Origin: an uncultured Candidatus Saccharibacteria bacterium
Lineage (GTDB): Bacteria; Patescibacteriota; Minisyncoccia; Phycocordibacterales; Zambryskibacteraceae
Length of the DNA: 64,000 nt
Direction: 5' to 3'
Assembly (NCBI GenBank): GCA_964582295.1
Contig: CAZOQP010000001.1
Coordinates: forward strand, 148,754-212,753
The notes beneath the pieces were generated by a model. The model searched no databases. It was not told the DNA's origin and saw only the letters and a program-made list of their open reading frames with translations. This document shows, piece by piece, positions 18,556-49,113 of this stretch. Numbering within the stretch: position 1 is the first letter of the stretch; each line of letters starts with the position of its first letter. Position numbers and translations under genes: made by a program.

Positions 18556-18618
18556 ACCTCCACGCCTTGCGGCATAAGAACCTCAATCTTACGTGTATAC
18601 CAATTTCACCACCCGCGC
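18534..18618 (-). tRNA. tRNA-Leu (anticodon GAG), CCA encoded
   Basis: GCGCGGGTGGTGAAATTGGTATACACG...; anticodon loop TTGAGGT; long variable arm; T-arm GGAGG-TTCAAGT-CCTCT. Confidence 0.75.
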
Positions 18619-27118: not shown

Positions 27119-27124
27119 AGATGT

Positions 27125-27264
27125 CGCTCGGGGTATTCTCTGAAAATTGGAAGCACGCACTCAGACACAAAAAGAGACCACTCCGGGGCGTGCCCCGGGT
27201 CTTAGTCTCTTTTCGTGTCTGAGTGCTTTACTCAAAAAACATTTTCAGAGAATACCCCTCGCTC
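27125..27264. repeat. long nested palindromic repeat, copy 1 (TIR-A plus conserved core B)
   Basis: ~140-nt near-perfect palindrome centred on ccggggcgtgccccgg; contains core aaaaagagaccactccggggcg...gtcttagtctctttt. Confidence 0.8.
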
Positions 27265-27354
27265 TTTAAATATTTGACCTTTTGGGGGGTAGTGATAGAA
27301 TAGGGGGGTGTTAGAGCCCTCGGGGCTTTTTTTATTAACCCACATTTCTTATAT

Positions 27355-27534
27355 ATGAAAATCGGAGAATACATAAAGGAAACCAGAAGCGAGCTTTCTC
27401 ATGTAAGCTGGCCCACCCGCAAACAGGCTATTAGCTACTCTGCGATCGTTATCGGTCTTTCACTTGCCATCGCTATTTACCTCGGTGCAGCGGATTTCAT
27501 ATTGTCCCGACTGTTGTCTCTCATCATCTCCTAA
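27355..27534 (+). CDS. secE: preprotein translocase subunit SecE (59 aa)
   Basis: MKIGEYIKETRSELSHVSWPTRKQAISYSAIVIGLSLAIAIYLGAADFIL; directly upstream of nusG; too short for the ORF track. Confidence 0.75.
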   Translation: MKIGEYIKETRSELSHVSWPTRKQAISYSAIVIGLSLAIAIYLGAADFILSRLLSLIIS

Positions 27535-27570
27535 AGTTACTGTTTATCAGCCATTAGTTATTTTTATTCC

Positions 27571-28116
27571 ATGTCCAAACAAAAAATAGAAGTCGGGAGA
27601 AATTGGTACGTCATCCACACATACGCTGGATATGAAAACGCTGTTATGCGCAATTTGAAACAGCGTATTGAATCTCTCGGTATGGAAGACAGGATATTCC
27701 AGGTCATCGTTCCAACGGAAAAAAAGATAAAGATAAAAGGCGGAAAGCGTGTGGAAGAAGAGGAGAAGATATACCCCGGCTATATCTTGGTGGATATGAT
27801 AGTTACCGACGATTCATGGTACGTGGTTAGAAATACTCCTAGAGTGACGGGCTTCGTGGGTTCCGGCGTGTACCCCGTGCCTCTGGATAAAAAAGAAGTT
27901 GATTCTCTCTTTGCTCGCATGAGTGCAGACAAGGTGATGCACAATGTTGACCTCTCTGTTGAAGATTCCGTTCTTATTGTTGACGGGCCTTTCAAGGACC
28001 TTGAAGGTAAGGTTAAAGAAGTTGACGAGGAAAGAGGTAAGGTGCGGGTGCTGGTTTCCATGTTCGGTCGCGCTACCCCTGTGGAATTGGATTTCTTGCA
28101 GATAAAGAAGATCTAA
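27571..28116 (+). CDS. nusG: transcription termination/antitermination factor NusG
   Basis: NGN domain [14 protein letters not shown] and C-terminal KOW motif. Confidence 0.85.
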
Positions 28117-28138
28117 GGTAGTCTGTCGCAACATTATT

Positions 28139-28561
28139 ATGGCAAAAGCAATAGCTAAAAAACTCAAAGTAGTGCTCCCAGGTGGAAAGGCCACTCCGGC
28201 GCCGCCTGTGGGTCCTATTCTTGGCCAGGCTGGCATCAATATTGGCGAGTTCATAAAGCAGTTCAATGACGCCACCCGCGACAAAATGGGGGACACTATT
28301 CCTGCGGAAATAACCGTTTATGACGACAGAACTTTCACTTTCATATTAAAAACCCCGCCCGCCTCGGCTCTTATTTTAAAAGCACTCGGACAGGAAAAAG
28401 GTTCAGGTCACGCTCCTGCCACCAAAATAGGAACTCTGAATGATAAACAATTGACAGATATCGCGGAAATGAAAATGCCGGATCTTAATGCCGGAGATAT
28501 TGATGCTGCAAAGAAAATCATTGCTGGCACGGCACGTTCAATGGGGGTTGACGTTAAGTAG
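28139..28561 (+). CDS. rplK: 50S ribosomal protein L11
   Basis: [31 protein letters not shown]... Confidence 0.9.
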
Positions 28562-28605
28562 AAAAGCTTATATTCTTCGGGCAGAACCCATTTCGGAGGA
28601 GCGTT

Positions 28606-28989
28606 ATGAAAATCGTTCTTTCCGATCTGTCGGAAAGTTCACCTAAGGAAAAGAGAGCGCTCGTTCAGAAGATCTACGAGTATCTCAAATCCAAGCCGGG
28701 CAACCGAGCGGCGCTGGCCAAAAATTTCCTCAAAGTAGAGGGATTGCTGGCCAGCTCCGATGTCGCCATCCTTTTTCCGGAATTTCCGTCTGACACGGCA
28801 AAGGAAATCCGATGGCTAGTCCGCACATCCGCTCACCCCATTCTTTTGATACATATCGGGGGTGGTGAGGAAAATGTGTACATGCAAATGTCGCTATCAG
28901 TGCAGAGTGCCAGCATGGAGGTGAAGGGTGAGGGGGATTTTCACAAGATTGACAAAGCCCTCCGACAGATCAAGAAAAATGCCTCGTGA
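28606..28989 (+). CDS. hypothetical protein (occupies position normally held by rplA)
   Basis: 127-aa ORF with strong RBS GGAGGA; no L1 similarity. Confidence 0.45.
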   Translation: MKIVLSDLSESSPKEKRALVQKIYEYLKSKPGNRAALAKNFLKVEGLLASSDVAILFPEFPSDTAKEIRWLVRTSAHPILLIHIGGGEENVYMQMSLSVQSASMEVKGEGDFHKIDKALRQIKKNAS

Positions 28990-29108
28990 GCCGTATGCAC
29001 TTCCGCATACCCCACGAGGCATTTTTGTTTTTTTGACAACTAAGAGTAAACAGGTAATCTTTGAGGTGGACCGTTCTTCAAAGTTACCTATGCCAAAGGG
29101 GTGTTCTC

Positions 29109-29741
29109 ATGACCATTGTCACGACTGTTCCACAAGAACCTCTTACGCCCATGCTAAGGGTGGGGAAGGTTCTTGAGCCAAAGATGAACTTTCGACACCG
29201 TTTCATTCCGAATTATGGGGAATTGAAAGAGGTGGTGGCCGCATTGCGTTCTATGGGTAAGCGCATTGTCCTGACCAAAGGGGTCTATGACCTCATCCAT
29301 GTCGGGCATGCCCGTTACATTTCCCAAGCGAAAGCAGAGGGAGATATTCTCATCGTATCGATCGATACCGATGCTCTTACTCGGAAACGAAAAGGGCCCA
29401 CTCGTCCTATCGTCTCCGAAGATGAGCGTGTTGAGATGATCCTTCATCTTCGGTATGTCGATATCGTCACGATACGCGACACACACCACGGTGAGGAAGA
29501 TGACATTGAGGTGATCCGTCCTGATGTTCTCATCACCTCGGAGACGACTGCTGATTACACGGAGGAGAAAAAAGTATTCCTCCGTGATAAGTATGGTCTG
29601 ACAGTTCATACTCTCAAGCCTCAGGCGGAGACATCCACGACGGCAACTATTCGAAATCTCATGATCGATGGACGAGCGGAACTTATCGCAAAACTTCAAG
29701 CTGTTCTGGATGAGTTCAATTCACACCTGCAGGGCCTATGA
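29109..29741 (+). CDS. cytidylyltransferase-like nucleotidyltransferase (RfaE domain II / TagD family)
   Basis: IVLTKGVYDLIHVGHARYI (H-x-G-H motif), LIVSIDTDA..RKRKGPTRPI; alternative TTG start 29061. Confidence 0.6.
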   Translation: MTIVTTVPQEPLTPMLRVGKVLEPKMNFRHRFIPNYGELKEVVAALRSMGKRIVLTKGVYDLIHVGHARYISQAKAEGDILIVSIDTDALTRKRKGPTRPIVSEDERVEMILHLRYVDIVTIRDTHHGEEDDIEVIRPDVLITSETTADYTEEKKVFLRDKYGLTVHTLKPQAETSTTATIRNLMIDGRAELIAKLQAVLDEFNSHLQGL

Positions 29742-30595
29742 GAAACTTCGCCATCGTGGCCTATGTCCCTGTACTTCACTCGGGATATCTGGGATTTTTG
29801 AAACGCCATCCGGGTGATATCCATCTCCTAGATCCAAAAGAATTTCCTATGCTCGATTATCTCGCAAGAGATATGAGAGCATTGCCGCCAGCTTTGATGG
29901 TAAATATCATCAAAGCTGCGCTGTCTAAGGAAAAGGATGAAAGAGAGGTGGGGGTGGCAAATGAAGATACGCTTCGTATTTTAGGTCAGGATGGAACATC
30001 AATTATTCTTCCTGATGAAGATGTATCTCGTGCCGCAGCGGAGAAGTTTCTCGGGGAAGCGAATGCATCCTTCGATCCGATAGTGTTGCGATGGGATTGG
30101 GGGAATGTCCAAAAGGCCGTTGCTGTAGAATCTGATCGCGAAATATCCACCGATGCTCTTCTTGTTGAATTGATGGGGCGTGCGTATGCAGAAGCATCTC
30201 GCAGTCCTGATTGGTGGAGGCAAGTCGGAGCTTTGCTCGTACGGGATGGGAAAGTGATCACTAGTGGATTCAATGTCCATATGCCGACCGAACATTCATG
30301 CTCGGTCATGGGCGATCCGCGCTCTCCTTTCAAACCTGGACAGCAAATTGAACTTTCATCGGCTCATCATGCTGAGAAAGAGATAATCTGCTGGGCAGCA
30401 CGAAAGGGGGTATCGACCGAAGGCGCAAGTCTCATGGTAACTACCTTCCCATGCCCTGTATGTGCAATGGATATTGTTCGTTCGGGGATTTGCAAGGTGT
30501 ATTACTCCGAAGGGTATTCCCTTGTAGCAGCACAAGATATTCTTCGTTCAGGTAACGTCGAGATCGTAAAGGTCTCAAAGCCTCCTCTATCGTGA
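29738..30595 (+). CDS. deoxycytidylate (dCMP) deaminase-like protein with ~170-aa N-terminal extension
   Basis: C-terminal CDA zinc motifs HAEKEII...PCPVCAMDI; N-terminal domain of unknown function. Confidence 0.6.
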   Translation: MRNFAIVAYVPVLHSGYLGFLKRHPGDIHLLDPKEFPMLDYLARDMRALPPALMVNIIKAALSKEKDEREVGVANEDTLRILGQDGTSIILPDEDVSRAAAEKFLGEANASFDPIVLRWDWGNVQKAVAVESDREISTDALLVELMGRAYAEASRSPDWWRQVGALLVRDGKVITSGFNVHMPTEHSCSVMGDPRSPFKPGQQIELSSAHHAEKEIICWAARKGVSTEGASLMVTTFPCPVCAMDIVRSGICKVYYSEGYSLVAAQDILRSGNVEIVKVSKPPLS

Positions 30596-30608
30596 GGGGG
30601 CTTTCGTT

Positions 30609-31070
30609 TTATATTTTGTAGCCGAGTTGAACCATAAGAGGATCAGTTTTTTTTGTTTTCCTCTTGCCTCCTTGTATCACATGGGCGTGAAGGTGGGTAA
30701 CGGAGGCCCCGGTAATATCCCCGTCTCCAAAGCGAATAAAAAAACTCCCGCCGTTTTTAACTGAAGGGAAAGTAGTTTTTTTAATTAATAATAAAAGTTC
30801 CTGCCACTCATCTGGTTTAATTTTAGAAAGGTGTTCAATGTGGCGTTTATGAACGAAAAGAAAGTGGTGGGATGTTCCTTGGTATGGCCAGGCATTTTCT
30901 GTAACGATCCAGTATTTCCCCTTCTTAAGGATGGGGTTTTTATGATATTTTGTAAAATATTTCCAGCAAAAAGGACAAACTCCGTCTTTAATGATCTTTT
31001 TATGAATCGCACGTTGGTCATCTGTACGGGAGTGGTGCATCACCACATGCTTTTTCCTCATCAAAATCAT
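30609..31070 (-). CDS. HIT-family (histidine triad) nucleotide hydrolase/transferase
   Basis: GASVTHLHAHVI histidine triad; ATG at 31070 (listed ORF starts TTG 31097). Confidence 0.6.
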   Translation of the reverse strand: MILMRKKHVVMHHSRTDDQRAIHKKIIKDGVCPFCWKYFTKYHKNPILKKGKYWIVTENAWPYQGTSHHFLFVHKRHIEHLSKIKPDEWQELLLLIKKTTFPSVKNGGSFFIRFGDGDITGASVTHLHAHVIQGGKRKTKKTDPLMVQLGYKI

Positions 31071-31104
31071 CCTAGCCGCTTTTCTTTCTGAATACAAGAA
31101 CCGC

Positions 31105-31629
31105 CTACGCTTGTCGCGTAGGCGGTGGACTGATCCTGTGATACCACAGAAACTCGGATGTCGGTTGACCTTCAGGGGGCGGTGGGTCAGGTGTTCCTAA
31201 TACCAGCCACCATTCTTTCGGATCACATCCAAGCACTTCATGAAAGAACGTATCACCCAGCGGCTCACAATGCACAAGGGTAATAAGGAGACGGTCCGCA
31301 TATTGCAAACCTTGTTTGTATACACGTTCGCCTCCTATCAAGAACACCCCCTTTTCATTACCAGCACGATTGAGGGCTTCCTCAAGATTTTGAACTGTTT
31401 CAGCCCCCTCAGCTCGGTAGGAGTGATTACTGGTGATGACAATATTCCTCCGGCCAGGCAACGGTCTCCATTTTGGTGGCAAGGATTCCCACGTAGATCG
31501 TCCCATGATACCCACTCCTCCTAAAGTGAGTCTCTTGAAACGTTCCATATCGTGGGGAAGGCGCCAGGGAACTTTCCCTCCGTTCCCAATAACACCGTTC
31601 TTGGCTACCGCCGCGATAATTGTGGCCAT
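31105..31629 (-). CDS. folA: dihydrofolate reductase
   Basis: IIAAVAKNGVIGNGGKVPWRLPHDMERFKRLT...IMGRSTWESL. Confidence 0.8.
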   Translation of the reverse strand: MATIIAAVAKNGVIGNGGKVPWRLPHDMERFKRLTLGGVGIMGRSTWESLPPKWRPLPGRRNIVITSNHSYRAEGAETVQNLEEALNRAGNEKGVFLIGGERVYKQGLQYADRLLITLVHCEPLGDTFFHEVLGCDPKEWWLVLGTPDPPPPEGQPTSEFLWYHRISPPPTRQA

Positions 31630-31638
31630 TCGCTTTCC

Positions 31639-32508
31639 TCAGGTTGCGACCGGAATTCTCATTCCGGGATGCGGATTGTAGTCCTCAAGCTCAAACCAAC
31701 TCGAATCGACCTTGAAGATGTCCGTAACGGGCCGAATAAGTCTTACAGTTGGAAATGTTCTCGGTTCCCGTTTGATGAGGATGTTCACATTTTCGACCTG
31801 ATTCTCGTAAATGTGAGCATCAGAGAATGAGTGGACATACTGCCAGGGCTTGAGCCCGAGTTGACTTGCAAATGCCTGAGTAAACGCGGCGTATTGGATG
31901 ATGTTTGATGGAACACCAACTGGAAAATCGCATGATCGCTGGAACATATGAATTACCAGCTTGCCGTTGACATTCCGGGCATGTATCCATCCGTGGCACG
32001 GTGCAACAACTGCTTGTTGATTTTCTCCACGCACGAGCCAGAAAGGTATCCATGGCGTGATGAAATGAGTTCGCGCTTCAGGAAATTTTTCCATCTGCTT
32101 AACGAGATTCTGGAACTGATTGAACGTGCTCCCGTCAGGCATGGGGAAATCGTGGAAGGCGCCACCATAAGAGGCCTTGCCGAGCGTGTCGCCAAGTTGC
32201 ATTCCTTCCGCATTTTCTCGCCACTGATCCCACCAACCGCATCCGGCTTCCCTTAAGCCATCGAAAGTTATCTCTCCTCGAACGAACGAAAAGAGTTCAT
32301 CGATGGCTTTTCTCCAGAAGCTTGCGGCATTTCTTTCCGTAATGATCGGAAATCCATTGTCGAGGTCGTACCAGATCTTGGGAGCCGTGAAATCCGTTAT
32401 TGCTCCCACACCTTGCGGAGTAGTTTTGATAACCTCTCCGTTTTTCAAGATGTACTCAAGGCATGAGAGATACTGCCGGTCTGGGGTTCGTTCTTCAGGT
32501 CGTCGCAT
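31639..32508 (-). CDS. thyA: thymidylate synthase (ThyA family, somewhat divergent)
   Basis: YLSCLEYIL, APCHGWIHA (catalytic Cys), FQRSCDFPVGVPSNI; canonical RTGTGT folate-binding motif not conserved. Confidence 0.75.
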   Translation of the reverse strand: MRRPEERTPDRQYLSCLEYILKNGEVIKTTPQGVGAITDFTAPKIWYDLDNGFPIITERNAASFWRKAIDELFSFVRGEITFDGLREAGCGWWDQWRENAEGMQLGDTLGKASYGGAFHDFPMPDGSTFNQFQNLVKQMEKFPEARTHFITPWIPFWLVRGENQQAVVAPCHGWIHARNVNGKLVIHMFQRSCDFPVGVPSNIIQYAAFTQAFASQLGLKPWQYVHSFSDAHIYENQVENVNILIKREPRTFPTVRLIRPVTDIFKVDSSWFELEDYNPHPGMRIPVAT

Positions 32509-32584
32509 TGGTTCCTCAAAGGGCTAGGGTCTTTTGACATCCTAGTGTTTTTTGAAGCAATGTCAAAAGTGATATAGTTTCTTC

Positions 32585-33010
32585 ATGTTGACCTTGAAAG
32601 TTAAGAAACTTCACCCCGATGCAAAGTTGCCTGTGTATGCCAAAACAGGTGATGCGGGATGTGACCTTTTTTCGCTTGAAAATACGGAAATAAAATCCGG
32701 AGAGAGGGTGCAGGTGAGGACTGGCATTGCTGTGGAATTCCCGGAAGGGTATTTCGGAGCGATCTGGGACAAAAGCGGTCTTTCACACAAACACGGACTG
32801 AAAACCATGGGGGGTGTTGTAGACTCGGGATACAGAGGAGAGATAATGGTGGGGGTCATTAATCTTTCTCAGGAAACATATAAACTGGAAGCAGGACACA
32901 AGGTGGCCCAGATGATAATTCAGAAAATAGAAAATGTTCATATAGAGGAGTCTCACGAACTTTCTTCTACTGAAAGAGGAGAAGGAGGATTTGGAAGTAC
33001 TGGAAAATAA
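32585..33010 (+). CDS. dut: dUTP diphosphatase
   Basis: GDAGCDL, RSGL-like, GVVDSGYRGEI, ERGEGGFGSTG motifs. Confidence 0.85.
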   Translation: MLTLKVKKLHPDAKLPVYAKTGDAGCDLFSLENTEIKSGERVQVRTGIAVEFPEGYFGAIWDKSGLSHKHGLKTMGGVVDSGYRGEIMVGVINLSQETYKLEAGHKVAQMIIQKIENVHIEESHELSSTERGEGGFGSTGK

Positions 33011-34653: not shown

Positions 34654-34778
34654 TGCCCCAAGCCATAATATGGCTATTCGGTTTTTTTGTTTTTAAATAT
34701 TCATACTTGCGGTAATTTTCTCATAGTGATTATATGGGGTGAGAAGCACACACCCCACATCCTTTCCGAGGGCTTGCC

Positions 34779-35423: not shown

Positions 35424-35506
35424 GGACAGACAATAAGCATCAAACGGCCCCGAGATTTGAATAACTCCGGGCCGTTTTTCTATTTCAGATAAGTTATAAT
35501 AGGAGC

Positions 35507-38500
35507 ATGAGCGAAAAGGCGGGAGAAGATAAATCTCTCCTTTCGAAGCCGCTTCCGAGCGGACTCCTGAAGGAAAGCTTGCCCACCGCCGAAGAGGCGG
35601 TTCTTTCATTTTGGAAAGAAAATGGGATTTTTGAGAAGTCTCTTGCGAAAAATGCCGGTAAACGTCGCGGCCTCTTCGGCGGTAAAAAAGAATTCGTATT
35701 TTACGAAGGTCCGCCTACAGCGAACGCCCGCCCTGGCATTCACCACCTCATATCTCGGGCTTTCAAGGATGTGATCCTGCGCTACAAAACCATGCAGGGT
35801 TTTCATGTTCCTCGCCGGGGCGGCTGGGATACGCACGGCTTGCCGGTAGAGCTTGAAGTGGAAAAAAAGCTTGGTTTTTCATCCAAAAAAGATATAGAAA
35901 ATTACGGCATCGCACGTTTCAATGAAGAATGCAGAAAAAATGTCGGCACCTATATAGATGAGTGGCGGAAATTCACGGACAGGATCGGATATTGGCTTGA
36001 TCAGGATAATGCTTACTTCACTTACACTCCTCAATACATTGAGTCTGTCTGGAACATAATTTCGCAAGCCCATAAAAAAGATCTTTTGTATAAAGACTAT
36101 AAGGTGGTGCCGTGGTGCCCTCGCTGTGGCACCGGTCTTTCTTCGCACGAATTGGCACAGGGTTATAAAGATGTAAAAGACTTGTCTGTATACGTTAAGT
36201 TTCCGGTTGTCGGGGAACCGAATACTTTTTTCCTGGCGTGGACGACGACACCCTGGACTCTTGTCGGTCACTTGGCTCTTGCGGTGGGAGAAAATATTGA
36301 TTATGTGAAAGTAAAGTCGGGAGAAGATTTTTTCATCCTGGCCGAAGCGCGTCTTTCAGTTCTCGGGGACGGTTATGAAATTATTAAAAAAAGTATAAAA
36401 GGAAAAGAACTTATAGGCACTAAATATCTGCCACCGTATACATATTTGGAAACAGAGATTCCGAGAGCAGAAAGTGGGAAATTAGAAAAAGCTTTCAAAG
36501 TTTATTCTGCCGATTTCGTGAATACGGAAGACGGTACGGGAATTGTTCACACAGCCGTTATGTATGGCCAGGATGATTTTGAGCTAGGCACAAAAATAGG
36601 CCTGCCAAAACATCATATGGTGGATGAAACGGGCCACTTCGTGAAAGGCACCGGGTTTTTGGAGGGAAGGTTCGTAAAAGATGAAGAAACTGATGTGGAG
36701 ATAATAAAAGATCTTGCCCACAGAAATCTCCTTTTCAAAAAAGAGAAGTACGAACATTCATATCCTCACTGCTGGCGCTGTGGCACACCTCTCATTTATT
36801 ACGCGCGTGATTCATGGTATGTCAGGATGAGCAAGCTTCGCGACGCACTCGTTTCTGAAAATAAAAAAATACACTGGGAGCCGGAACATATCCGCGACGG
36901 CCGCTTCGGAGAATGGCTGGCAGATGTAAAAGACTGGGCTATTTCCCGTGAGCGCTACTGGGGTACACCTCTTCCTGTGTGGGAATCAGCAGATGGCGAC
37001 AGAATAGTGGTGGATTCAATAGAAACTCTTAAAAAATATTCAAAAAAATCCGGCAATCGCTACATGGTGATGCGTCATGGTGGAACGGAAGGCAATGCTC
37101 ATGAAAAAGTTAGTTTTGCGGGGCAGGAGAAAGACCATCTGACGGACGTTGGCCAGAAGCAGGCAGAAAAAGCCGCTCGCGACCTTAAAGGAAAAAACGT
37201 GGAACTCATTTTCGTATCACCTTTCGCCCGCACCAAGGAGACAGCGGAGATAGTGAGGAAAGGGCTCGGCCTTGCGGAGGAGAACGTTATTGAGGATGCG
37301 CGGCTTATTGAAATAAATCCCGGTATTTTTGACGGAAAGAATTGGAACGAATATCACAATTTCGTGTACAGGCAGGGCGATGGCTGGTTCACCGAGCCCA
37401 TCCCGCAAGGTGAATCTTTTGTGGAAGTGCGAAAGCGTGTAGGCGAATTTCTTTACGAGCTTGAAAGGAAATACAAAGATAAGAACATACTCATAGTTAC
37501 TCACGGTGCGCCCGCATGGCTTTGCTTTGTGAACGCAGGGCTTTTTACTCCGACAGGCAAGGAATATCAGCCGGCTGATACCCGGGCGTTCATTAAAGAA
37601 TTCAAACGTTTTGATAATGCAGAGGTGAGGGAATTGCCTTTCGTACCTCTTCCGCATGACGAAAATTTTTCCTTAGATCTTCATAAGCCGTATATAGATG
37701 AAATAGTTTTGGAAAAAGACAATAAAGAATACAGGAGAGTGAAGGAGGTGATGGATGTGTGGTTGGACGCCGGTTCCATGCCTTTTGCACAAGTGCATTT
37801 TCCATTTGATACAAAAAATATCGCATACCCGGCGGATTATATATGCGAAGGTGTGGATCAAACACGAGGATGGTTTTATACATTGCATGCGGTGGGAATG
37901 CTTATGGACCGGGGCCGTGCCTACAAAAATGTAATATGCCTCGGGCACATTCTGGATAAGGAAGGAAAAAAGATGTCCAAATCCATCGGTAACACCATTG
38001 ATCCATGGGAAGCTGCCAAAGATTTCGGGGTGGACGCCTTGCGCTTCTGGATGTTCGCGGTAAAAGAACCGGGAGAACCCAAGAATTTTGATCCTGAATC
38101 CGTGCGTGATATGTCGCGTAAAGTTTTTGGCTTGGCGACCAACGTACTCTCTTTTTATGAGATGTACAAAGTGAATGATGAAGCCGAGTGTGATTCAGAG
38201 AATGTTTTGGACAGGTGGATAATGGTGCGCCTTGCTGAATTAAGCGAAACAGCTCAAAAAAATATGGATGAGTACCGCATTTTGGAGGCGGCGCGCGCGG
38301 TGAGGGATTTCATAGGGGATCTCTCCCAGTGGTATGTCCGTCGTTCAAGGGAGCGTTTCAAAGGAGAAGGAGATGACGCGCGCGCCGCCTCCCGAACTAC
38401 CCGCTACGTGCTCCACGCACTTGCCCGCATTATGGCTCCCATGACACCTTTCTATGCCGAGGCACTTTGGGCGAGTGTGAAGGGTGCCGCAGATCCTGAA

Positions 38501-39016
38501 AGCGTCCATCTGGCGGACTGGCCGGCGGTTCCTAAAGCAGATATGCGCCTTATCCAGCAAATGAGAGAATTGCGGGAGATAGTTTCCCACGCACTTCTAC
38601 TCCGTTCGCGTGCAGGCATAAAGATACGCCAGCCGCTAAAAGAACTTCGTATAAAAGATAAAACTATCGGCTCAAACAAAGAACTCGTCCTGCTTATAAA
38701 AGATGAACTGAACGTAAAAAATATTGCCGTTGATGAAACACTTACGGAAAAAACTTTTCTGGTACTGGAAATAACCCCGGAGCTTAAAGCTGAAGGGGAA
38801 ATGAGGGAACTTTTGAGAAATATTCAGGAAAAAAGAAAAGAGGCGGGGTTTTCTCCGAAAGATGAAGCGAAAGTGGTCGTATCCGCATCTTCATCCGCAA
38901 AAAATATTCTCATGCCATTTGAGGAGCTGATAAAAAAACAGGGGAATATAAAAGAACTTGTGTGGGAAGATTCGCAAAATGATGAAGCGCAGGTGGTGAG
39001 CGTAGAAAAATCATAA
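35507..39016 (+). CDS. ileS: isoleucine--tRNA ligase (type 2) with inserted histidine-phosphatase (PGAM-like) domain
   Basis: PPTANARPGIHH (HIGH), CP1 editing domain, KMSKSIGN; ~200-aa segment 37055-37665 has RHG...N and LIVTHG histidine-phosphatase motifs. Confidence 0.85.
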   Translation: MSEKAGEDKSLLSKPLPSGLLKESLPTAEEAVLSFWKENGIFEKSLAKNAGKRRGLFGGKKEFVFYEGPPTANARPGIHHLISRAFKDVILRYKTMQGFHVPRRGGWDTHGLPVELEVEKKLGFSSKKDIENYGIARFNEECRKNVGTYIDEWRKFTDRIGYWLDQDNAYFTYTPQYIESVWNIISQAHKKDLLYKDYKVVPWCPRCGTGLSSHELAQGYKDVKDLSVYVKFPVVGEPNTFFLAWTTTPWTLVGHLALAVGENIDYVKVKSGEDFFILAEARLSVLGDGYEIIKKSIKGKELIGTKYLPPYTYLETEIPRAESGKLEKAFKVYSADFVNTEDGTGIVHTAVMYGQDDFELGTKIGLPKHHMVDETGHFVKGTGFLEGRFVKDEETDVEIIKDLAHRNLLFKKEKYEHSYPHCWRCGTPLIYYARDSWYVRMSKLRDALVSENKKIHWEPEHIRDGRFGEWLADVKDWAISRERYWGTPLPVWESADGDRIVVDSIETLKKYSKKSGNRYMVMRHGGTEGNAHEKVSFAGQEKDHLTDVGQKQAEKAARDLKGKNVELIFVSPFARTKETAEIVRKGLGLAEENVIEDARLIEINPGIFDGKNWNEYHNFVYRQGDGWFTEPIPQGESFVEVRKRVGEFLYELERKYKDKNILIVTHGAPAWLCFVNAGLFTPTGKEYQPADTRAFIKEFKRFDNAEVRELPFVPLPHDENFSLDLHKPYIDEIVLEKDNKEYRRVKEVMDVWLDAGSMPFAQVHFPFDTKNIAYPADYICEGVDQTRGWFYTLHAVGMLMDRGRAYKNVICLGHILDKEGKKMSKSIGNTIDPWEAAKDFGVDALRFWMFAVKEPGEPKNFDPESVRDMSRKVFGLATNVLSFYEMYKVNDEAECDSENVLDRWIMVRLAELSETAQKNMDEYRILEAARAVRDFIGDLSQWYVRRSRERFKGEGDDARAASRTTRYVLHALARIMAPMTPFYAEALWASVKGAADPESVHLADWPAVPKADMRLIQQMRELREIVSHALLLRSRAGIKIRQPLKELRIKDKTIGSNKELVLLIKDELNVKNIAVDETLTEKTFLVLEITPELKAEGEMRELLRNIQEKRKEAGFSPKDEAKVVVSASSSAKNILMPFEELIKKQGNIKELVWEDSQNDEAQVVSVEKS

Positions 39017-39020
39017 GAAT

Positions 39021-39611
39021 ATGCATAGAATCTACTCATCGCCTGCTGTAGTACTTTCCTGCCGAGGAGCGGGGGAGGGAAACATGCTTGTTACTTTTCT
39101 TTCTCGAGATTTGGGCCTTATACGTGCCAAAGCTATTTCATCTCGTAAAGCGGAGGCCAAACTCAAGGGCCACATCGTCCCTTACACCCTTGGAACTTAC
39201 GGCTTCGTGCGTGGCAAGAACGGCTGGCGGCTGGTGCACGCGGATGCCTCGGAGAACATCTTCTTTTCTTTGGGCGAAATTCCATTGTCTCTAGCACGTC
39301 GCACTCTTATGGGCCGTGTACTTTCACTTGTGGGAAGGGTTTCAGAAGAACAGAAGAACCATGAACTTTTTGAATGTATCACTTCAGGGCTTAAATTTTT
39401 GAAAGTTGCGGACGAGGAGAATCTCAAGGCCTATGAAATAATTTTTGTAGGTAGGGTGATGGCTCTTTTGGGATACGTTTCCTTTGATGACATGCCGGAG
39501 CCGTTCAAAGAATGGAAAACTTTCAGTCGCGGTCTCATAGAAAGCTCTCTTCCTCACACTAAAATGATACTTTCGCGCATAAATGAGGGGCTCAAGGAAA
39601 GTCATCTTTAA
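39021..39611 (+). CDS. recO: DNA repair protein RecO (short form)
   Basis: N-terminal OB-fold pattern AVVLSCRGAGEGNMLVTFLSRDLGLIRAKA. Confidence 0.6.
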   Translation: MHRIYSSPAVVLSCRGAGEGNMLVTFLSRDLGLIRAKAISSRKAEAKLKGHIVPYTLGTYGFVRGKNGWRLVHADASENIFFSLGEIPLSLARRTLMGRVLSLVGRVSEEQKNHELFECITSGLKFLKVADEENLKAYEIIFVGRVMALLGYVSFDDMPEPFKEWKTFSRGLIESSLPHTKMILSRINEGLKESHL

Positions 39612-39624
39612 CATCATACGCTCC

Positions 39625-39693
39625 GCAACCTGGCTAAAAAGAGACCACTCCGGGGCGTTTGCCCAAGTCTTAGTCTCTTTTTAGCCAGGTTGC
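39625..39693. repeat. nested palindromic repeat, copy 2 (core B with different outer arms)
   Basis: gcaacctggctaaaaagagaccactccggggcgtttgcccaagtcttagtctctttttagccaggttgc. Confidence 0.8.
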
Positions 39694-39729
39694 TTCCGCT
39701 ATAATTTTTTACTACAGGGTATAATAATA

Positions 39730-41637: not shown

Positions 41638-41642
41638 ACTTC

Positions 41643-41745
41643 GCTCGGGGTATTCCCTGAAAATGCACGAAAATTTTCTGCTGAAAATTTTCTCCGTCCG
41701 TCGCCGACCGCTCCTCCCAAGGCATTTTCAGGAAACACCCCGAGC
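41643..41745. repeat. palindromic repeat, copy 4 (TIR-A arms with different interior)
   Basis: gctcggggtattccctgaaaatg ... cattttcaggaaacaccccgagc; interior has gaaaattttc direct repeat. Confidence 0.7.
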
Positions 41746-41807
41746 TTCGCAGGGAAAATAGGAATAAACAGTATGCTAGGATTACTTTTATGAAAGAGGA
41801 GGGGAAG

Positions 41808-43001: not shown

Positions 43002-43068
43002 AGATACAGAGGGCTGCCTTATCCGTATCAATTTGCCCAGGATTGGGTGAAAGTGTAATATTCCTCAA

Positions 43069-44355
43069 ATGCTAAAACCTCAAAAACACGTTTTCCCGAG
43101 CGGCCTCACCCTTATTACCGTGCCTATGAAAAATTCTCCTACGGTTACGGCGGAGGTGATGGTTGAAACCGGTTCTAAATATGAGAAGAAAGAGCAGGGT
43201 GGCCTTTCCCATTTTTTGGAGCATATGTGCTTCAAGGGCACTCCTACACGCCCCACCTCAGAAATTCTTGCCAGGGAACTTGATGAACTTGGCGCGCAAT
43301 ACAACGCCTATACGTCAACGGAGATGACGGCCTACTTTGCCAAAGGCAGACCCGAGCATGTAAATAAACTTTTGGACGTTGTTTCGGATATGTATATCAA
43401 TTCTGTTTTTAATCCGATGGATCTCAAAAAAGAAAAGGGTGTGATACTCCAGGAAATAAATCTTTCTGAAGACAAGCCGGAACGGATAGCCAACCGACTT
43501 TTTGATAAAACTGCACATGGTGATCAGCCGGCCGGCCGTTCTGTTCTGGGTACAAAAAACACCACTCAATCTTTCACTTCGGAAGATTTCAGGAAGTACA
43601 GGGACTCTCATTACAAGACAAAAGCCACTACTGTCATCGTGGCGGGGGATGTGAACCCCAAAGACATACAAAAATCTGTGGCAAAATTTTTTGCTGCCAT
43701 GCCGCGCGGCTCTAAACCCGGAAAAGAAAAAGTCATGATAAAAAGGACCGGGCCGCGCATAGGCGTTCACCCGAAAGAAACAGATCAGGTGCATTTCCTT
43801 TTCGGCACCCGCACTTTCCCTTACGGAAACAAGAATAATGCCGCTCTCTCTGCCATGACCTCTGTATTATCTTCCGGCTTCAGCTCGCGTCTTCTTATAA
43901 AAATGCGCGAAGAGCTAGGCATCTGCTATTACGTAACAGCTCACAATGATCCCTCTACCGATCACGGCGAATTCGCTGTTTCTACAGGAGTAGACCCGAA
44001 GCGTTTGGACATTGCCATAGAAGCGGTGGCAGAAGAATTCAAAAGATTGGCCAATGAAAAGGTGCCTGTTAAAGAACTTTCAAAATCTATAGAGAAGCGT
44101 GTATCCAATATGTATATGAGTTTGGAATCTTCAGACGATGTGGCAGATTATTTCGGCCACCGATGGCTTTTCAACCGGGACATAAAAACCCCAAAAGAGG
44201 TAGAAAAAGAAATACGCTCCGTTACACCTGAAAGCATACAGCGGGTGGCACGGACAATTTTCACCCCGGAGAACGTCATCTTTTCCGTGGTCGGCAGGGG
44301 GCTTACCAAAGAAGGCATCTCTAAACTGGTGAACAAACACGTCAAGAATTGGTGA
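43069..44355 (+). CDS. M16-family zinc metallopeptidase (pitrilysin-like)
   Basis: Inverted zinc-binding motif HFLEHM...E. Confidence 0.7.
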   Translation: MLKPQKHVFPSGLTLITVPMKNSPTVTAEVMVETGSKYEKKEQGGLSHFLEHMCFKGTPTRPTSEILARELDELGAQYNAYTSTEMTAYFAKGRPEHVNKLLDVVSDMYINSVFNPMDLKKEKGVILQEINLSEDKPERIANRLFDKTAHGDQPAGRSVLGTKNTTQSFTSEDFRKYRDSHYKTKATTVIVAGDVNPKDIQKSVAKFFAAMPRGSKPGKEKVMIKRTGPRIGVHPKETDQVHFLFGTRTFPYGNKNNAALSAMTSVLSSGFSSRLLIKMREELGICYYVTAHNDPSTDHGEFAVSTGVDPKRLDIAIEAVAEEFKRLANEKVPVKELSKSIEKRVSNMYMSLESSDDVADYFGHRWLFNRDIKTPKEVEKEIRSVTPESIQRVARTIFTPENVIFSVVGRGLTKEGISKLVNKHVKNW

Positions 44356-44374
44356 TAGTATATATATCAATATC

Positions 44375-45430
44375 ATGAATAACGGCCATACGCGCCTATC
44401 CATAGACAGTCGCTCTGTCATAAAAGTGATAGCCATCCTCGCAGTAGCTTTCATGGTTTTCCTGGTGCGGGATATCCTGCTCGTCATTCTTACTGCCATC
44501 GTCATCGCATCTGCCATAGAGCCGGGTGCGCGTTTATCCAAGAAACTTCACCTGCCGCGCACCCTTGTGGTTCTGGGTATTTACGTTCTCACCGCCTTAC
44601 TTTTTCTTGGCACACTTTATTTCCTTCTGGTGCCGCTTCTTTCGGAATCAGCTTCTTTCCTTTCAAGTATTCCTGAATACACCGAATCCTTTGCTGCCGC
44701 GACCACCACCCCTGCCTTCTTCGGGTCGCAATTCATCCAAGGCATCACCTCTACTGTTTCTCTGCCAAACCTCATAGAACAGATAAACGGCGCCATCGTG
44801 CACATTTCAAGCGGTGTCTTTGGCACCATTGATGTCATCTTCGGTGGCGTCCTCTCCTTTGTTCTCATAATCGTACTTTCCTTTTATCTTGCGGTGCAGG
44901 AAGACGGTATCACCAAATTTTTGCGCATCATAACCCCGGCAAGTAAAGAGAAACACATTATTTCTATATGGCGCCGCTCTCAGGAAAAGATCGGCCTTTG
45001 GATGCAGGGTCAGCTCTTGCTTGCCGTTATCGTGGGTGTGCTTACATTCTTAGGCCTCACGCTTCTCGGTGTGCCAAATGCTCTCCTTCTGGCTTTCATT
45101 ACGGGAATGCTTGAGATCATCCCTCTTTTCGGTCCCATTCTTGCCGCCGTGCCGGCTGTCATCATTTCGTTTGCGTCCGGAGGATTCGGCCTTGCCGCAT
45201 TGGTAACAGCTCTCTTCGTTATCATTCAGCAATTTGAAAGCCATCTTATATATCCGCTGGTGGTGCGCAAAGTGGTTGGGGTGCCTCCTATCATTTCCAT
45301 CATCGCTCTCGTTATCGGCGCCAAACTCGCCGGCTTCTTAGGCATTCTCCTTGCTGTTCCCTTGGCGACTGTCATCATGGTCCTTCTTGAGGACATGGAA
45401 AAGGCCAAGCACGCTCCTGCTGTCGAATAA
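44375..45430 (+). CDS. AI-2E family transporter (PerM/UPF0118)
   Basis: Eight TM helices, conserved AI-2E pattern. Confidence 0.6.
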   Translation: MNNGHTRLSIDSRSVIKVIAILAVAFMVFLVRDILLVILTAIVIASAIEPGARLSKKLHLPRTLVVLGIYVLTALLFLGTLYFLLVPLLSESASFLSSIPEYTESFAAATTTPAFFGSQFIQGITSTVSLPNLIEQINGAIVHISSGVFGTIDVIFGGVLSFVLIIVLSFYLAVQEDGITKFLRIITPASKEKHIISIWRRSQEKIGLWMQGQLLLAVIVGVLTFLGLTLLGVPNALLLAFITGMLEIIPLFGPILAAVPAVIISFASGGFGLAALVTALFVIIQQFESHLIYPLVVRKVVGVPPIISIIALVIGAKLAGFLGILLAVPLATVIMVLLEDMEKAKHAPAVE

Positions 45431-45445
45431 TCTGCCGCCCGAATA

Positions 45446-46891
45446 ATGGCGAAAAAACCTGTTTACATCACCACCACTCTGCCCTATGTGAATGCGGAGC
45501 CCCATGTGGGGCACGCCATGGAATTCGTGCGGGCGGATGTTATTGCCCGCTTCAGGAAAATGGAGGGAGATGAAGTTTTTTTCAACACCGGCACAGATGA
45601 GCACGGCATAAAAATATATAAAGCTGCCCAGGATGCCGGGCGCGACGTGAAGGATTTTGTAGATGAATATGCGGCGCGCTTTCGCGAGATATTGAAACTT
45701 TTGAACGTGAGCGAGGACATTCATTTTGTGCGTACAACGGATGAAAAGCATGTGCGCGCGGCAGAAAGCTTTTGGAAAAAGTGCGAAGAAAACGGGTTTA
45801 TATACAAAGGCCAGTACACCGTGAAATATTGCACCGGCTGTGAACTGGAAAAAACAGATTCGGAACTTGAAGACGGCCGCTGCCCGCTTCACTCCACACT
45901 TGAGATAGAGCTCATAGACGAAGAAAATTATTTTTTCAAATTCTCGGCTTTTGCAGAAAAATTATCTAATCTTTATGAAACCGAGGAAAATTTTGTGGTG
46001 CCAGAAGTACGATTGAATGAGATACGCTCTTTCGTAAAGCAGGGGCTTCAGGATTTCAGCATCTCGCGCTTGGCTTCAAAAATGCCGTGGGGTGTGCCAG
46101 TTCCTGGTGCGCCGGAGCACGTGATGTATGTGTGGTTTGACGCCTTAGTTTCATACATTTCCACTTTGGGTTGGCCCGACTCGGCCGAAACAGGAGATTT
46201 TAATAAGTTCTGGGCGGAGGGGGAAACCATTCAATATGCAGGGAAAGACAATCTGCGTCAGCAGTCGGCAATGTGGCAGGCCATGCTTATGGCGGCGGGC
46301 CTTCCTAATACGAATCATGTAGTGATAAACGGATTCATCACAGGGGAGGGAGGAGTGAAAATGTCTAAAACTTTGGGCAATACTATTGACCCGAAGGAAA
46401 TCGTGGAAACATTCGGCGCGGATGCTTTCAGATATTTCGTGTGCCGCGAACTCTCAACATTTGAAGATTCTCCCTTCACAACGGATGCTTTCAAAAATGC
46501 TTACAATGCCAACCTCGCGAATGGCCTCGGCAATTTAGTGTCGCGGGTGATGGCTTTAGCTTCCAAATACTGCAATCCGATTTCTGAGACTCCGGAATTG
46601 CCGGGAGAATTCGTATCATTTTTAAATGAATTCAAAATACATGCAGCGGCTAATATGGTGTGGAGGCACATAGGGGAGGCAGATAAAATGATGCAGGAAA
46701 AGGAGCCGTTCAAGGTGGTGAAGACCGATCCTGAAGCTGGAAAAATGGTCCTTATGGAGCTTGTGAAGCGACTCTCTGTTATAGCCGAAATGCTTGTGCC
46801 GCTTATGCCTGAAACGGCGGAAAAAATAAAACTTCTCATAAAAGAGAATACCTCGCCCGTCTCGCCTCTTTTCCCGCGCTTTGAAAGCTAG
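45446..46891 (+). CDS. metG: methionine--tRNA ligase
   Basis: LPYVNAEPHVGHA (HIGH), zinc knuckle CTGCELE...CPLH, KMSKTLGN. Confidence 0.85.
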   Translation: MAKKPVYITTTLPYVNAEPHVGHAMEFVRADVIARFRKMEGDEVFFNTGTDEHGIKIYKAAQDAGRDVKDFVDEYAARFREILKLLNVSEDIHFVRTTDEKHVRAAESFWKKCEENGFIYKGQYTVKYCTGCELEKTDSELEDGRCPLHSTLEIELIDEENYFFKFSAFAEKLSNLYETEENFVVPEVRLNEIRSFVKQGLQDFSISRLASKMPWGVPVPGAPEHVMYVWFDALVSYISTLGWPDSAETGDFNKFWAEGETIQYAGKDNLRQQSAMWQAMLMAAGLPNTNHVVINGFITGEGGVKMSKTLGNTIDPKEIVETFGADAFRYFVCRELSTFEDSPFTTDAFKNAYNANLANGLGNLVSRVMALASKYCNPISETPELPGEFVSFLNEFKIHAAANMVWRHIGEADKMMQEKEPFKVVKTDPEAGKMVLMELVKRLSVIAEMLVPLMPETAEKIKLLIKENTSPVSPLFPRFES

Positions 46892-46918
46892 AATGAGAAA
46901 ATTGGGAAGAAATCATTT

Positions 46919-47707
46919 ATGGAAAATAAGGAATATAAATACATAGATGCACACTGCCATCTGCAGTTTGAGGATTACGATCGAGATAGGGAAGAGGAAA
47001 TAAGAAAAACGGCGGCGGAAGAAACGGCAGCCATTGTGGTGGGGGTTGATAGTGCAAGTTCTGCTGAAGCGGTGGCTCTTGCGAAAAACCACGAGCATAT
47101 TTTCGCCTGTGTCGGCATTCACCCCACATACGACGACCCTCATGCAAAAGAAATAGAGAAATTAGTATCTAGTCCGAAAGTGGTGGGAGTGGGTGAATGT
47201 GGCCTGGATTTTTTTAGGAATTCGCGTGATGAAAATGAGAAGCGCCAAAGAGATATTTTTGAATGGCAGATAGAGATTGCTTTGAAAAATAATAAGCCGC
47301 TCATGATACATGCACGAGATTCATACAAAGAGGTGGCGGATATTTTGACATCTAAAAAGAAGGAAGCGGGGGAGAAGCTTCGCGGCAATATGCATTTTTT
47401 CGCAGGAGATATGGATGACGCGAAAGTTTTTATTGATCTCGGCTTCACACTTTCTTTCACTGGCGTTATAACTTTTGCGAGAGATTATGACGATGTCATA
47501 CGCTTTGCGCCCATATCAAATCTTCTTTCGGAAACCGATGCACCTTACGTAACACCTGTTCCTTTCAGAGGCAAAAGAAATAATCCGCGTTTCGTGAGTG
47601 AAGTGATAAGGGCTTTGGCCAAGATCCGCGAGGAAAATGAAGAAGAAGTGAGAGCTGCCGTTTTTGAGAATGCCTGTAGGGTTTTTGGGTTGCCGTTGCA
47701 GAGCTAA
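46919..47707 (+). CDS. tatD: TatD-family metal-dependent hydrolase
   Basis: IDAHCHL, GECGLD, MIHARD, TDAPY motifs. Confidence 0.8.
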   Translation: MENKEYKYIDAHCHLQFEDYDRDREEEIRKTAAEETAAIVVGVDSASSAEAVALAKNHEHIFACVGIHPTYDDPHAKEIEKLVSSPKVVGVGECGLDFFRNSRDENEKRQRDIFEWQIEIALKNNKPLMIHARDSYKEVADILTSKKKEAGEKLRGNMHFFAGDMDDAKVFIDLGFTLSFTGVITFARDYDDVIRFAPISNLLSETDAPYVTPVPFRGKRNNPRFVSEVIRALAKIREENEEEVRAAVFENACRVFGLPLQS

Positions 47708-47799
47708 AAACTTCATGATAAAGTGCTCGGGTTCTTACAAATTATCGGAGTGTTAAGCCCCTCGCCTTTGGCTTCGGGGCGCAATGTGCCACACCACAT

Positions 47800-48261
47800 A
47801 TGAAAGAAGAAAATAAAGAGGGAAGCCGCATCTATGAAGCGAGCTTCCTCATCTCCCCAACCTTATCTCTCGGAGATGCCGCCTCAAAAGCGGAAGCTAT
47901 CCGTGCATCAATAGAGAAATCGGGGGGTTCTATCCTTGAAGGAGAAGAGCCCCGCCTTAGGAAAATTGCCTATCCTATATATAAAGTTATAGGAGGAAAC
48001 AAGATTGCGGCTACCACCGCTTATTTCGGCTGGAGCAAGTTTGAAGGAATTGCAGACCCTGCGCCCATCGCGGCAGAACTTCAGTCAATGGAGGAGGTTT
48101 TGAGGCACCTTATAATTGAAACGGTAAGAGAAAGGACATATATTCCCCGGGAACCAGAGCCCGTAGAAGAGGATGTTGTGGGGGGCGAGGATACAGCTAC
48201 CCTAGAAGAAGTGGTAGTACCGGCTGAAGGAGAGGTTGAAGCCGAGAAACCGAAGGAATAG
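47800..48261 (+). CDS. rpsF: 30S ribosomal protein S6
   Basis: RIYEASFLISPTLS...LRKIAYPIYK S6 pattern with acidic C-terminal tail. Confidence 0.75.
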   Translation: MKEENKEGSRIYEASFLISPTLSLGDAASKAEAIRASIEKSGGSILEGEEPRLRKIAYPIYKVIGGNKIAATTAYFGWSKFEGIADPAPIAAELQSMEEVLRHLIIETVRERTYIPREPEPVEEDVVGGEDTATLEEVVVPAEGEVEAEKPKE

Positions 48262-48308
48262 AATAAGGGGTGTTAAGAATAGTAGGTAACAGACGATAAT
48301 AAAACACG

Positions 48309-48767
48309 ATGTACATAAACAAAGCATTTCTCTTCGGAAACCTTACTCGCGATCCTGAAGTGCGTTCTCTGCCATCAGGTATTGCCGTAACTTCCTTCTC
48401 CATTGCCACTAATCGCACCTGGAAAGATAAAGAAGGTCGCAAGCAGGAATCCACGGATTACCACAACATAGTGGCTTTCGGAAAGCCGGGAGAGGTAGTG
48501 GCGCAGTATGCGCGCAAGGGCTCTTCGCTTTTCGTGGAAGGCAGGATACAGACGCGAAGCTGGGAAGCTGCGGATGGACAGAAAAAATATCGCACGGAAA
48601 TAGTGCTAGATAACTTCCAGTTCGGCCCCAGAAAAGAGGGGCAGGGCGGGGGCTCTTATGAAAAAGCCGCTGCATCTGCATCGGCACCAGCTGCAGCAGC
48701 GGCAGCGCAGGAAGAGGCGATAGAATACCCGACCGAAGAAACCTCTACTGAAGATATTCCGTTCTAA
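48309..48767 (+). CDS. ssb: single-stranded DNA-binding protein
   Basis: OB-fold [13 protein letters not shown]..., Gly-rich linker, C-terminal acidic tip EDIPF. Confidence 0.85.
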
Positions 48768-48789
48768 AAATTTAAGTTTTGCTAAAAAT

Positions 48790-48999
48790 ATGAAACCCAA
48801 CCAACAGGAAAACGAGAGGCAGGACATGCCCAAACACATTGATTACAAAGATACGGAGCTTTTGAAAAAGTTCCTGAATCCTCATGCGCGAATAATGTCG
48901 CGCCGCCGCACAGGGCTTGCTGCCGGTGAGCAGAGGAATTTGGCTATGGCAATAAAGCGCGCGCGCTTTATGGCGTTATTGCCGTTTGTTTCTAGGTAA
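48790..48999 (+). CDS. rpsR: 30S ribosomal protein S18
   Basis: [50 protein letters not shown]. Confidence 0.85.
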
Positions 49000-49002
49000 A
49001 AC

Positions 49003-49082
49003 GTCGCTCGGGAATTCTGTAAAAAGAGATCACTCCGGGGCGTTTGCCCAAGTCTTAGTCTCTTTTTACAGAATTCCCTCGC
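49003..49082. repeat. nested palindromic repeat, copy 3 (TIR-A variant plus core B)
   Basis: gtcgctcgggaattctgtaaaaagagatcactccggggcgtttgcccaagtcttagtctctttttacagaattccctcgc. Confidence 0.8.
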
Positions 49083-49113
49083 TTGTAAATAGGAATAAGA
49101 AAGTGCGCAAAAA

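Follow-up and report, generated by a model that had tools for sequence, protein, structure and literature searches.

A probably mobile family of small palindromic repeats with a conserved hairpin tip and variable arms in Patescibacteria

The stretch of DNA analysed here, referred to as the window, comprises 64,000 nucleotides from an uncultured Candidatus Saccharibacteria bacterium (contig CAZOQP010000001.1, positions 148,754 to 212,753). It possesses four long hairpin elements, three of which (copies 1, 2 and 3) carry a common core at the tip while the fourth (element 4) lacks an intact one (Table 1). Each element sits between the stop codon of one gene and the promoter-like box of the next. 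Copy 1 follows a SIMPL/DUF541 gene (26342-27118), starting 5 nt past its TAA, and has a promoter (TTGACC-16-TAGAAT, 27274-27301) on its 3' side. Copy 2 is placed between the RecO stop codon (39609-39611) and a conserved GGTATAAT box upstream of a DUF11 gene. Element 4 starts 3 nt past the DUF11 stop codon, and copy 3 starts 4 nt past the TAA of rpsR (S18, 48790-48999), the last gene of the rpsF-ssb-rpsR operon. A first-pass annotation had put all starts within about 5 nt of a stop codon; this is true of three elements, 3-5 nt past a TAA, but not of copy 2, which begins 8 nt (GCTCC motif) to 13 nt (arm) past the RecO stop. Proteins under the names Minisyncoccota, Zambryskibacteria and Parcubacteria share 74-79% identity with the GlyRS of the window, and the window represents a Parcubacteria/Paceibacteria-type genome. 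Neither its GlyRS nor its RecO has an exact protein match in the records.

The core was confirmed at all three sites for which it had been proposed. A 20-nt core probe with one mismatch at most matched three times in the window and not once in 100 shuffles, and copies 2 and 3 are 98% identical over 49 nt. A covariance model detected no further core copy in the window, the remaining matches being plain hairpins. The core had been described as a unit of about 45 nt, but the truly conserved unit is a 37-nt GAGAC...GTCTC module; the AAAAA and TTTTT tracts beside it are particular to the window genome. Copy 1 has a variant centre, GGGGCGTGCCCCGG, resulting in a longer apical stem. This centre is not the perfect palindrome it was taken for, as CCGGGGCGTGCCCCGG and its reverse complement CCGGGGCACGCCCCGG match at 7 of 8 pairs. 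All four elements were found to fold into long hairpins on either strand (z-scores -7 to -14). A further terminal inverted repeat, TIR-A (TCGCTCGGGGTATTC), is present exactly at 27124 and 41641 and in a shortened form at 49004, and the modular nesting of core and TIR-A is real. TIR-A is absent from all loci fetched from other genomes. Inside element 4 lies a small AT hairpin, together with what may be a remnant of the core, GACCGCTCC...T.CCCAAG. The score of this remnant was equalled in only 16 of 2000 shuffles, which is borderline and no more than suggestive.

The core family extends beyond the window, for which uniqueness had been named as a reason to doubt a repeat. In a scan of one genome per prokaryotic species (185,579 species genomes), the core was found 16 times in 8 other metagenome-assembled genomes (MAGs), all of Patescibacteria, with 7 copies in the permafrost MAG Chersky_89. 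A metagenome scan added 23 loci, again in Patescibacteria records only, and the covariance model added three diverged copies outside the window. This brings the count to about 44 core copies, spread over many metagenomes and 8 or more further Patescibacteria genomes. Among viral contigs and the records of phages and plasmids there was no match, and a literature search on the sequence and on Patescibacteria repeats found no description. In both collection scans, parts of the core had to match exactly; either half could vary freely in one of the two scans, yet it barely did.

Alignment of 35 distinct copies showed that the 37-nt module, GAGAC-CACTCCGGGGCGTTTGCCCAAGTCTTA-GTCTC, is almost invariant and is always situated at the tip of a long near-perfect hairpin, in elements of 70-190 nt. 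The module is asymmetric: its stem of 5-9 bp (GAGAC/GTCTC) leads through an internal loop (CACTCC / AAGTCTTA) to an apical stem-loop, GGGC-GTTT-GCCC. The stem shows occasional compensated changes (GTGAC/GTCAC, CAGAC/GTCTG and GAGCC/GCCTC), and a second core allele, CGCTC[C/T]GGGGCGCTT, was obtained in covariance-model searches. The arms, of 14-47 bp, are unrelated in sequence between most copies, yet their pairing reaches 92%. Each outer column contains every one of the four Watson-Crick pair types, both partners have changed in 15 of 17 stem pairs, and compensated arm changes distinguish paralogous as well as orthologous copies. The two strands are equally rich in G-T mismatches (core strand 9, other strand 10), so the structure looks like a DNA palindrome and not like a strand-specific RNA.

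Around the core, larger assemblies were observed. In Chersky_89 an 85-nt unit is common to at least five copies, each with a private outer inverted repeat of 7-13 bp, which in the copy inside TsaE is GAGGTGG/CCACCTC. Short direct motifs stand beside the arms, TCGCTC...TCGCTC in the window and GCTCC...TCCGC elsewhere. Small GC-rich hairpins (CCTGCCTGCC..GGCAGGCAGG) were also seen inside the apical GTTT loop of the core in three loci (L032 ~995-1015, L034 ~4290-4310 and L035 ~40-60), so that hairpins are nested within the core as well as around it. Three loci (L018, L020 and L032) show a second, degenerate core in tandem after the first hairpin. The 135 open reading frames (ORFs) within 2.5 kb of 30 elements matched 162 Pfam families, none of them in more than three ORFs, and included no transposase or recurrent neighbour. 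The gene between two copies in L014, considered as a candidate transposase, is ribosomal protein L9.

The syntenic relatives L040, L042 and L053 were compared with the window; their GlyRS is 76-79% identical to that of the window. They keep the gene order IleRS-RecO-DUF11-GlyRS-...-S6-SSB-S18-EF-P, the distal part S6-SSB-S18-EF-P being available from L040 only. At the homologous positions the relatives have only the short spacers listed in Table 1, and the covariance model found no core in the loci L040-L042. The window copies are thus insertions at sites which are empty in the relatives, as the mobile family proposed earlier would have it, and not a feature kept by all relatives. Spacers of 7-35 nt force any tolerated intergenic insertion to start just past a stop codon, and the positional pattern is therefore explained without invoking function. 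In a different locus, a cysE gene (L003 620-1271) beside the element of L003 is missing in L028 and L031, where the flanks are 95-97% identical.

Copies in the coding sequence of three housekeeping genes gave a second line of evidence for insertion (Table 1). The reading frame stays open through the copies in UvrB, TsaE and IscS, and four of the six reading frames of the core are free of stops. Another copy provides the last 9 codons and the stop of a TsaE gene. The peptide encoded by the core, DHSGAFAQVLVS, was also used as query; its 43-aa profile gave two candidates and is uninformative on the frequency of in-frame copies.

Table 1. Hairpin elements of the window, copies in frame within housekeeping genes, and spacers in syntenic relatives
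Feature	Position or locus	Strand	Details
Copy 1, whole nested hairpin	27124..27264	+	direct TCGCTC motifs at 27124-27129 / 27259-27264
Copy 1, outer arms (TIR-A)	27130-27147 / 27241-27258	+	
Copy 1, inner private arms	27157-27178 / 27205-27226	+	
Copy 1, core	27174..27209	+	36 nt; covariance model 60.4 bits
Copy 2	39620..39699	+	order GCTCC, 11-nt private arm, A5, core, T5, second arm, TTCCGC
Copy 2, core	39641..39677	+	37 nt; consensus allele; covariance model 84.5 bits
Element 4, TIR-A hairpin without intact core	41641..41750	+	arms 41643-41666 / 41722-41745, 92% complementary
Copy 3	49004..49083	+	order TCGCTC, short TIR-A variant (GGGAATTCTGT), A5, core, T5, second arm, TCGCT
Copy 3, core	49026..49062	+	37 nt; one C-to-T change in GAGAC stem; covariance model 79.4 bits
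Copy in UvrB	L029	core strand	~48 extra residues vs solved structures
Copy in TsaE	L013	core strand	28-32 extra residues vs solved TsaE and the window's own TsaE
Copy in IscS-type cysteine desulfurase	L002	opposite strand	~35 extra residues vs solved structures
RecO|DUF11 spacer			14-30 nt in relatives vs 118 nt in window
DUF11|GlyRS spacer			7-19 nt in relatives vs 152 nt in window
S18|EF-P spacer			35 nt with plain terminator (L040 only) vs 427 nt in window

The origin of the arms could be followed at the convergent junction of the HIT and PGK genes, for which a protein search gave close relatives with and without the element. In the empty allele L051 the stop codons are 3 nt apart (...AAA ACC GCT CTG CAG TAG TTT|TTA...), and in the empty alleles L045-L049, L050 and L052 the two genes overlap. 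The filled alleles L025, L007 and L043 read ...AAA GCT GCT TTG CAG TAG TTT, followed by a 45-nt element (G NN GGAGAC-27 nt-GTCTCC NN C), by AAACTACTGCAAAGCAGCTTT and by the end of PGK (TAT...). The conserved C-terminus of HIT, K[AT]ALQ*, is encoded by the left arm and is also present in the empty allele, while the right arm repeats the HIT 3' end as a reverse complement of 21 nt. Gap placement by MAFFT is ambiguous here owing to the palindrome, and the HIT reading frame was used to decide which arm is native. The right arm of L043 matches the native sequence of L051 at 19 of 21 positions and is closer to it than to its own left arm, as expected of a fossil copy made in a common ancestor. This filled/empty comparison shows that one arm at HIT/PGK is native host sequence and the other its reverse-complement duplicate. 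The comparison revealed no direct target-site duplication at this junction; what is duplicated is 21 nt, in inverted orientation. Across the copies, too, no consistent direct duplication or target-site rule was found. The stop codon of a flanking gene lies inside an arm at about 7 loci.

The tip itself was found to turn over. L007 and L025 are 98.7% identical over 8 kb, and the core stands in opposite orientations between their identical arms. A 2-nt bubble next to the core is inverted together with it, so the breakpoints must lie inside the arms. In another orthologous spacer, with an aligned flank of 91% identity, the versions differ in arms, core allele and orientation. The tip can therefore invert between its arms.

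Taken together, we consider it likely, at a probability of roughly three in four, that the repeats form a family of non-autonomous mobile DNA elements specific to Patescibacteria (Parcubacteria/Paceibacteria lineage). The family is a small palindromic mobile element of the MITE (miniature inverted-repeat transposable element) or Rickettsia palindromic element (RPE) kind which has apparently not been described previously. The minimal inserted unit is the hairpin of about 45 nt. Larger composites also move, TIR-A being present at three loci in the window and the Chersky_89 unit in at least five copies.

As to mechanism, the hairpin would prime fold-back (template-switch) DNA synthesis that produces the duplicate arm, either during insertion or shortly afterwards. 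Composites of the core with older arms and short direct motifs of the GCTCC/TCGC type may then travel together and be wrapped in a further outer layer. Repetition of this layering would give nested, onion-like hairpins and genome-specific subfamilies such as TIR-A. Recognition by a trans-acting enzyme of the host or of an element could keep the core constant, and sites just past stop codons may be nearly the sole tolerated targets in the 7-35 nt spacers of such compact genomes.

Several points weigh against this account of mobile elements with locally copied arms. The presence of TIR-A at three window loci and of the 85-nt Chersky_89 unit indicates that those arms travelled with the core and were not copied locally, and the host origin of arms is demonstrated at HIT/PGK only. 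The short direct motifs (TCGCTC...TCGCTC, GCTCC...TCCGC) are left unexplained by fold-back copying. No mobilising enzyme was found among the 135 ORFs near the 30 elements, and no target-site rule could be defined. The invariance of the core is in part an effect of collection scans that needed exact matches to core parts. The relatives are only 76-79% identical in GlyRS, too distant for dating the window copies. The orientation relative to the upstream gene is skewed, with about 17 copies co-oriented, 5 opposite and 4 between convergent genes by crude ORF calls, and this skew toward the strand of the upstream gene could reflect a role at the RNA level.

The main rival is an origin in two steps, which we regard as possible but rather unlikely. 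Plain long perfect terminator hairpins would arise first, perhaps via inverted duplication of gene ends, and a separate mobile core of 37-45 nt would then enter their loops; the arms would therefore be pre-existing targets and not products of insertion. At least ten plain perfect hairpins of 15-23 bp do occur at gene ends in the window, element 4 is a TIR-A hairpin without intact core, and copy 1 is a core-bearing hairpin within a TIR-A hairpin. The GC-rich hairpins in the GTTT loop of L032, L034 and L035 demonstrate that insertion of hairpin in hairpin occurs. On the other hand, a plain-hairpin intermediate was seen in none of the five lineages sampled at HIT/PGK, and the copies in UvrB, TsaE and IscS bring arms of 14-18 bp to places at which homologues contain nothing additional, so that no earlier hairpin can have stood there.

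The location of the repeats at the ends of transcription units, their very stable hairpins, the strong conservation of the core and the skewed orientation toward the strand of the upstream gene would also suit a conserved functional RNA (an intrinsic terminator, a stabiliser of mRNA 3' ends or a small non-coding RNA), the core then being a protein-binding loop held by selection. The three uncompensated arm differences of L043, all of which are G-T on the HIT sense strand, point the same way. Such a role is nevertheless improbable in view of the empty orthologous sites in relatives, the copies within essential ORFs, the equal wobble counts on the two strands across all copies and the flip of the core between near-identical genomes. 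Rfam matches at gathering score were tRNAs only, and at E<=10 only generic miRNA-precursor hairpins appeared, on both strands. The suggestion in the first-pass annotation that the elements double as terminators found no support either. None of the four has a T-tract past its outer stem, the T5 run next to the core being paired with A5 inside the stem, and a terminator consensus scan called 0 of 4, so on sequence features a terminator role is not favoured. That the palindromes are artefacts of library preparation, amplification chimeras or the assembler, with an adapter-like contaminant as core, can be put aside as highly improbable: long perfect palindromes round a constant centre do resemble artefacts of hairpin adapters or multiple displacement amplification, and one Logan contig ends inside copy 3, but the core occurs in Patescibacteria records only among the 185,579 species genomes, comes from many independent studies and assemblers, has orthologous copies that evolve with their genomes and arm changes that track the flanks, and leaves reading frames open through three housekeeping genes.

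Among known repeats, RPEs show in-frame insertion into housekeeping genes without destroying them (review PMC10969869). The present family resembles them as small palindromic repeats without own transposase, scattered in a reduced genome and lying in frame in genes, here UvrB, TsaE and IscS. RPEs are conserved along their whole length of about 150 bp and belong to Alphaproteobacteria, whereas in the present family conservation is limited to the 37-nt tip, with varying arms and a different host phylum; the comparison is one of behaviour and not of sequence. A further difference is that one arm is copied from the host flank in the present family, where testable (HIT/PGK). Bacterial MITEs and terminator-like repeats (Correia/NEMIS, ERIC, BOX, RUP and SPRITE) are short, non-coding, hairpin-forming and mostly intergenic, vary in presence and absence and insert into one another (PMC10969869). 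Small size, non-coding nature, multi-copy state and presence/absence between relatives are shared by the present family, as are hairpin formation, a mostly intergenic location and insertion into one another. The definition of a MITE calls for direct target-site duplications and for terminal inverted repeats that are conserved and match an insertion sequence (IS). Here it is the arms at the ends that vary, with conservation in the centre; no related IS was found among the 135 neighbouring ORFs, and the duplication at HIT/PGK is inverted. The earlier label of a repeat like MITEs or repetitive extragenic palindromes (REP) thus fits the behaviour but not the anatomy, in which the hairpin tip and not the terminal repeats is conserved and the arms are host-copied at the one testable locus. 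RPEs and terminator-like MITEs are closest in behaviour, and membership of the RPEs is not claimed.

REP/REPIN elements with RAYT and transposition of the IS200/IS605 single-strand type are characterized by hairpin-dependent recognition, short direct motifs beside the hairpin and an orientation bias. In REP elements a short imperfect palindrome has a conserved motif of GTAG type on its 5' side; they occur in hundreds of copies, and their stems are conserved within a genome. The hairpin, the direct flanking motifs and the orientation bias recur here, but GTAG is absent, the flanking motifs are GCTCC/TCGC and there are 3 core copies per 64 kb. No RAYT/Y1 transposase was detected among the 135 ORFs within 2.5 kb of the 30 elements, nor in the 30 window ORFs scanned. 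Integron attC sites lie next to an integrase and a cassette array and have conserved R and L end boxes around a variable centre; this pattern is reversed here, where the centre is conserved and the ends vary, and the neighbours are housekeeping genes. In quasipalindrome template-switch mutagenesis, synthesis folds back at a hairpin, so that the neighbouring sequence is copied in inverted form and palindromes become perfect. The terminal repeats of parvoviruses are flip/flop hairpins with an asymmetric tip in both orientations between identical arms. Both resemble the present family, in the inverted copying of a flank and in the tip found in both orientations, but operate at fixed sites or at the ends of virus genomes, and neither is known as a way for repeats dispersed over a chromosome to acquire their arms. 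IS1397 and ISKpn1 are full-size IS3-family elements with transposase which insert into the loops of REP palindromes. They are a precedent for loop-targeting mobile DNA as the two-step origin would need it, although the unit here is about 45 nt and non-coding.

Several further features of the window and its neighbourhood were recorded. A second in-frame, RPE-like repeat family is represented by an identical 40-nt GC-rich hairpin-forming sequence, TCAAAAAACCTGCCCGCCCTGGCGGGCGTTCGGGCGGGGA, at 6364-6409 (+) and 7606-7651 (-). Its two copies sit in the unrelated genes for a SpoU rRNA methylase (6141-6638) and Fpg/MutM (7230-8168), and both encode KKPARPGGRSGGE. Between ftsK and the next gene, a 189-nt nested hairpin (53788-53976; 26-bp perfect terminal inverted repeats, -94.5 kcal/mol) has the same architecture as the four elements; homology to them was considered and found not significant (score 20 against 15.7 +/- 2.3 in shuffles). 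A perfect 23-bp palindrome with a 4-nt loop (8293-8342) lies in the 3' part of a Mur-ligase ORF (8195-9442, - strand), at about codons 367-383, where the Mur_ligase_C match ends, and it may be a gene end with its inverted copy but without core. The motif AAATAGG(A/G)ATAA occurs at 26293, 41756 and 49087, which is 27-50 nt upstream of three genes and in two cases just downstream of an element; it is probably a native promoter-type box and no part of the repeats. TAAA was considered as a target-site duplication of the TIR-A elements, but the right-hand TAAA falls within the native upstream motif of AAATAGGAATAA type, and it was rejected because this motif also precedes an element-free gene at 26293. 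GlyRS homologues begin at the second ATG (atggaaaaact...), so the GlyRS start of the window is probably 41808, which would make the spacer holding element 4 170 and not 152 nt long. Beside copy 3 lies a 103-aa ORF without Pfam match (49114-49425) which is missing in the relative L040. In an independent Logan assembly of the same strain, the contig L001 ends inside copy 3 (L001 10923-10958, window ~49039-49074), so the repeat breaks short-read assemblies. A large serine recombinase (16912-18555) with Resolvase, Recombinase and Zn ribbon domains adjoins tRNA-Leu (18534-18618); it may be the sign of an element integrated between this tRNA-Leu gene and the one at 14070. Isoleucyl-tRNA synthetase (35507-39016) contains a His_Phos_1 (histidine-phosphatase) domain within its class I catalytic domain, an architecture also found in L040, L042 and L053.

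With regard to its wider meaning, we advance only tentatively that the family represents a new class of mobile DNA, in which a non-coding hairpin of about 45 nt spreads by hairpin-primed fold-back or template-switch synthesis, or by a structure-specific or HUH-type host enzyme reading the invariant tip. If this were true, its footprint would be an inverted, not direct, duplication of the target flank, and it would leave onion-like nested palindromes, remodelled gene 3' ends and protein loops, and de novo terminator-like hairpins in the compact genomes of Patescibacteria. This footprint is unusual; if general, it would point to a transposase-independent or structure-specific mechanism and would offer a route to long perfect hairpins at gene ends. 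Patescibacteria make up a large share of bacterial diversity and have tiny genomes with few recognised mobile elements, and the present family shows that small selfish hairpins circulate there. These elements change housekeeping proteins (UvrB, TsaE, IscS and the C-terminus of HIT), break assemblies and place long palindromes at the ends of operons. Being invariant, the 37-nt tip can serve as a probe for a census of the family, for its reader protein and for dating insertions in population metagenomes.

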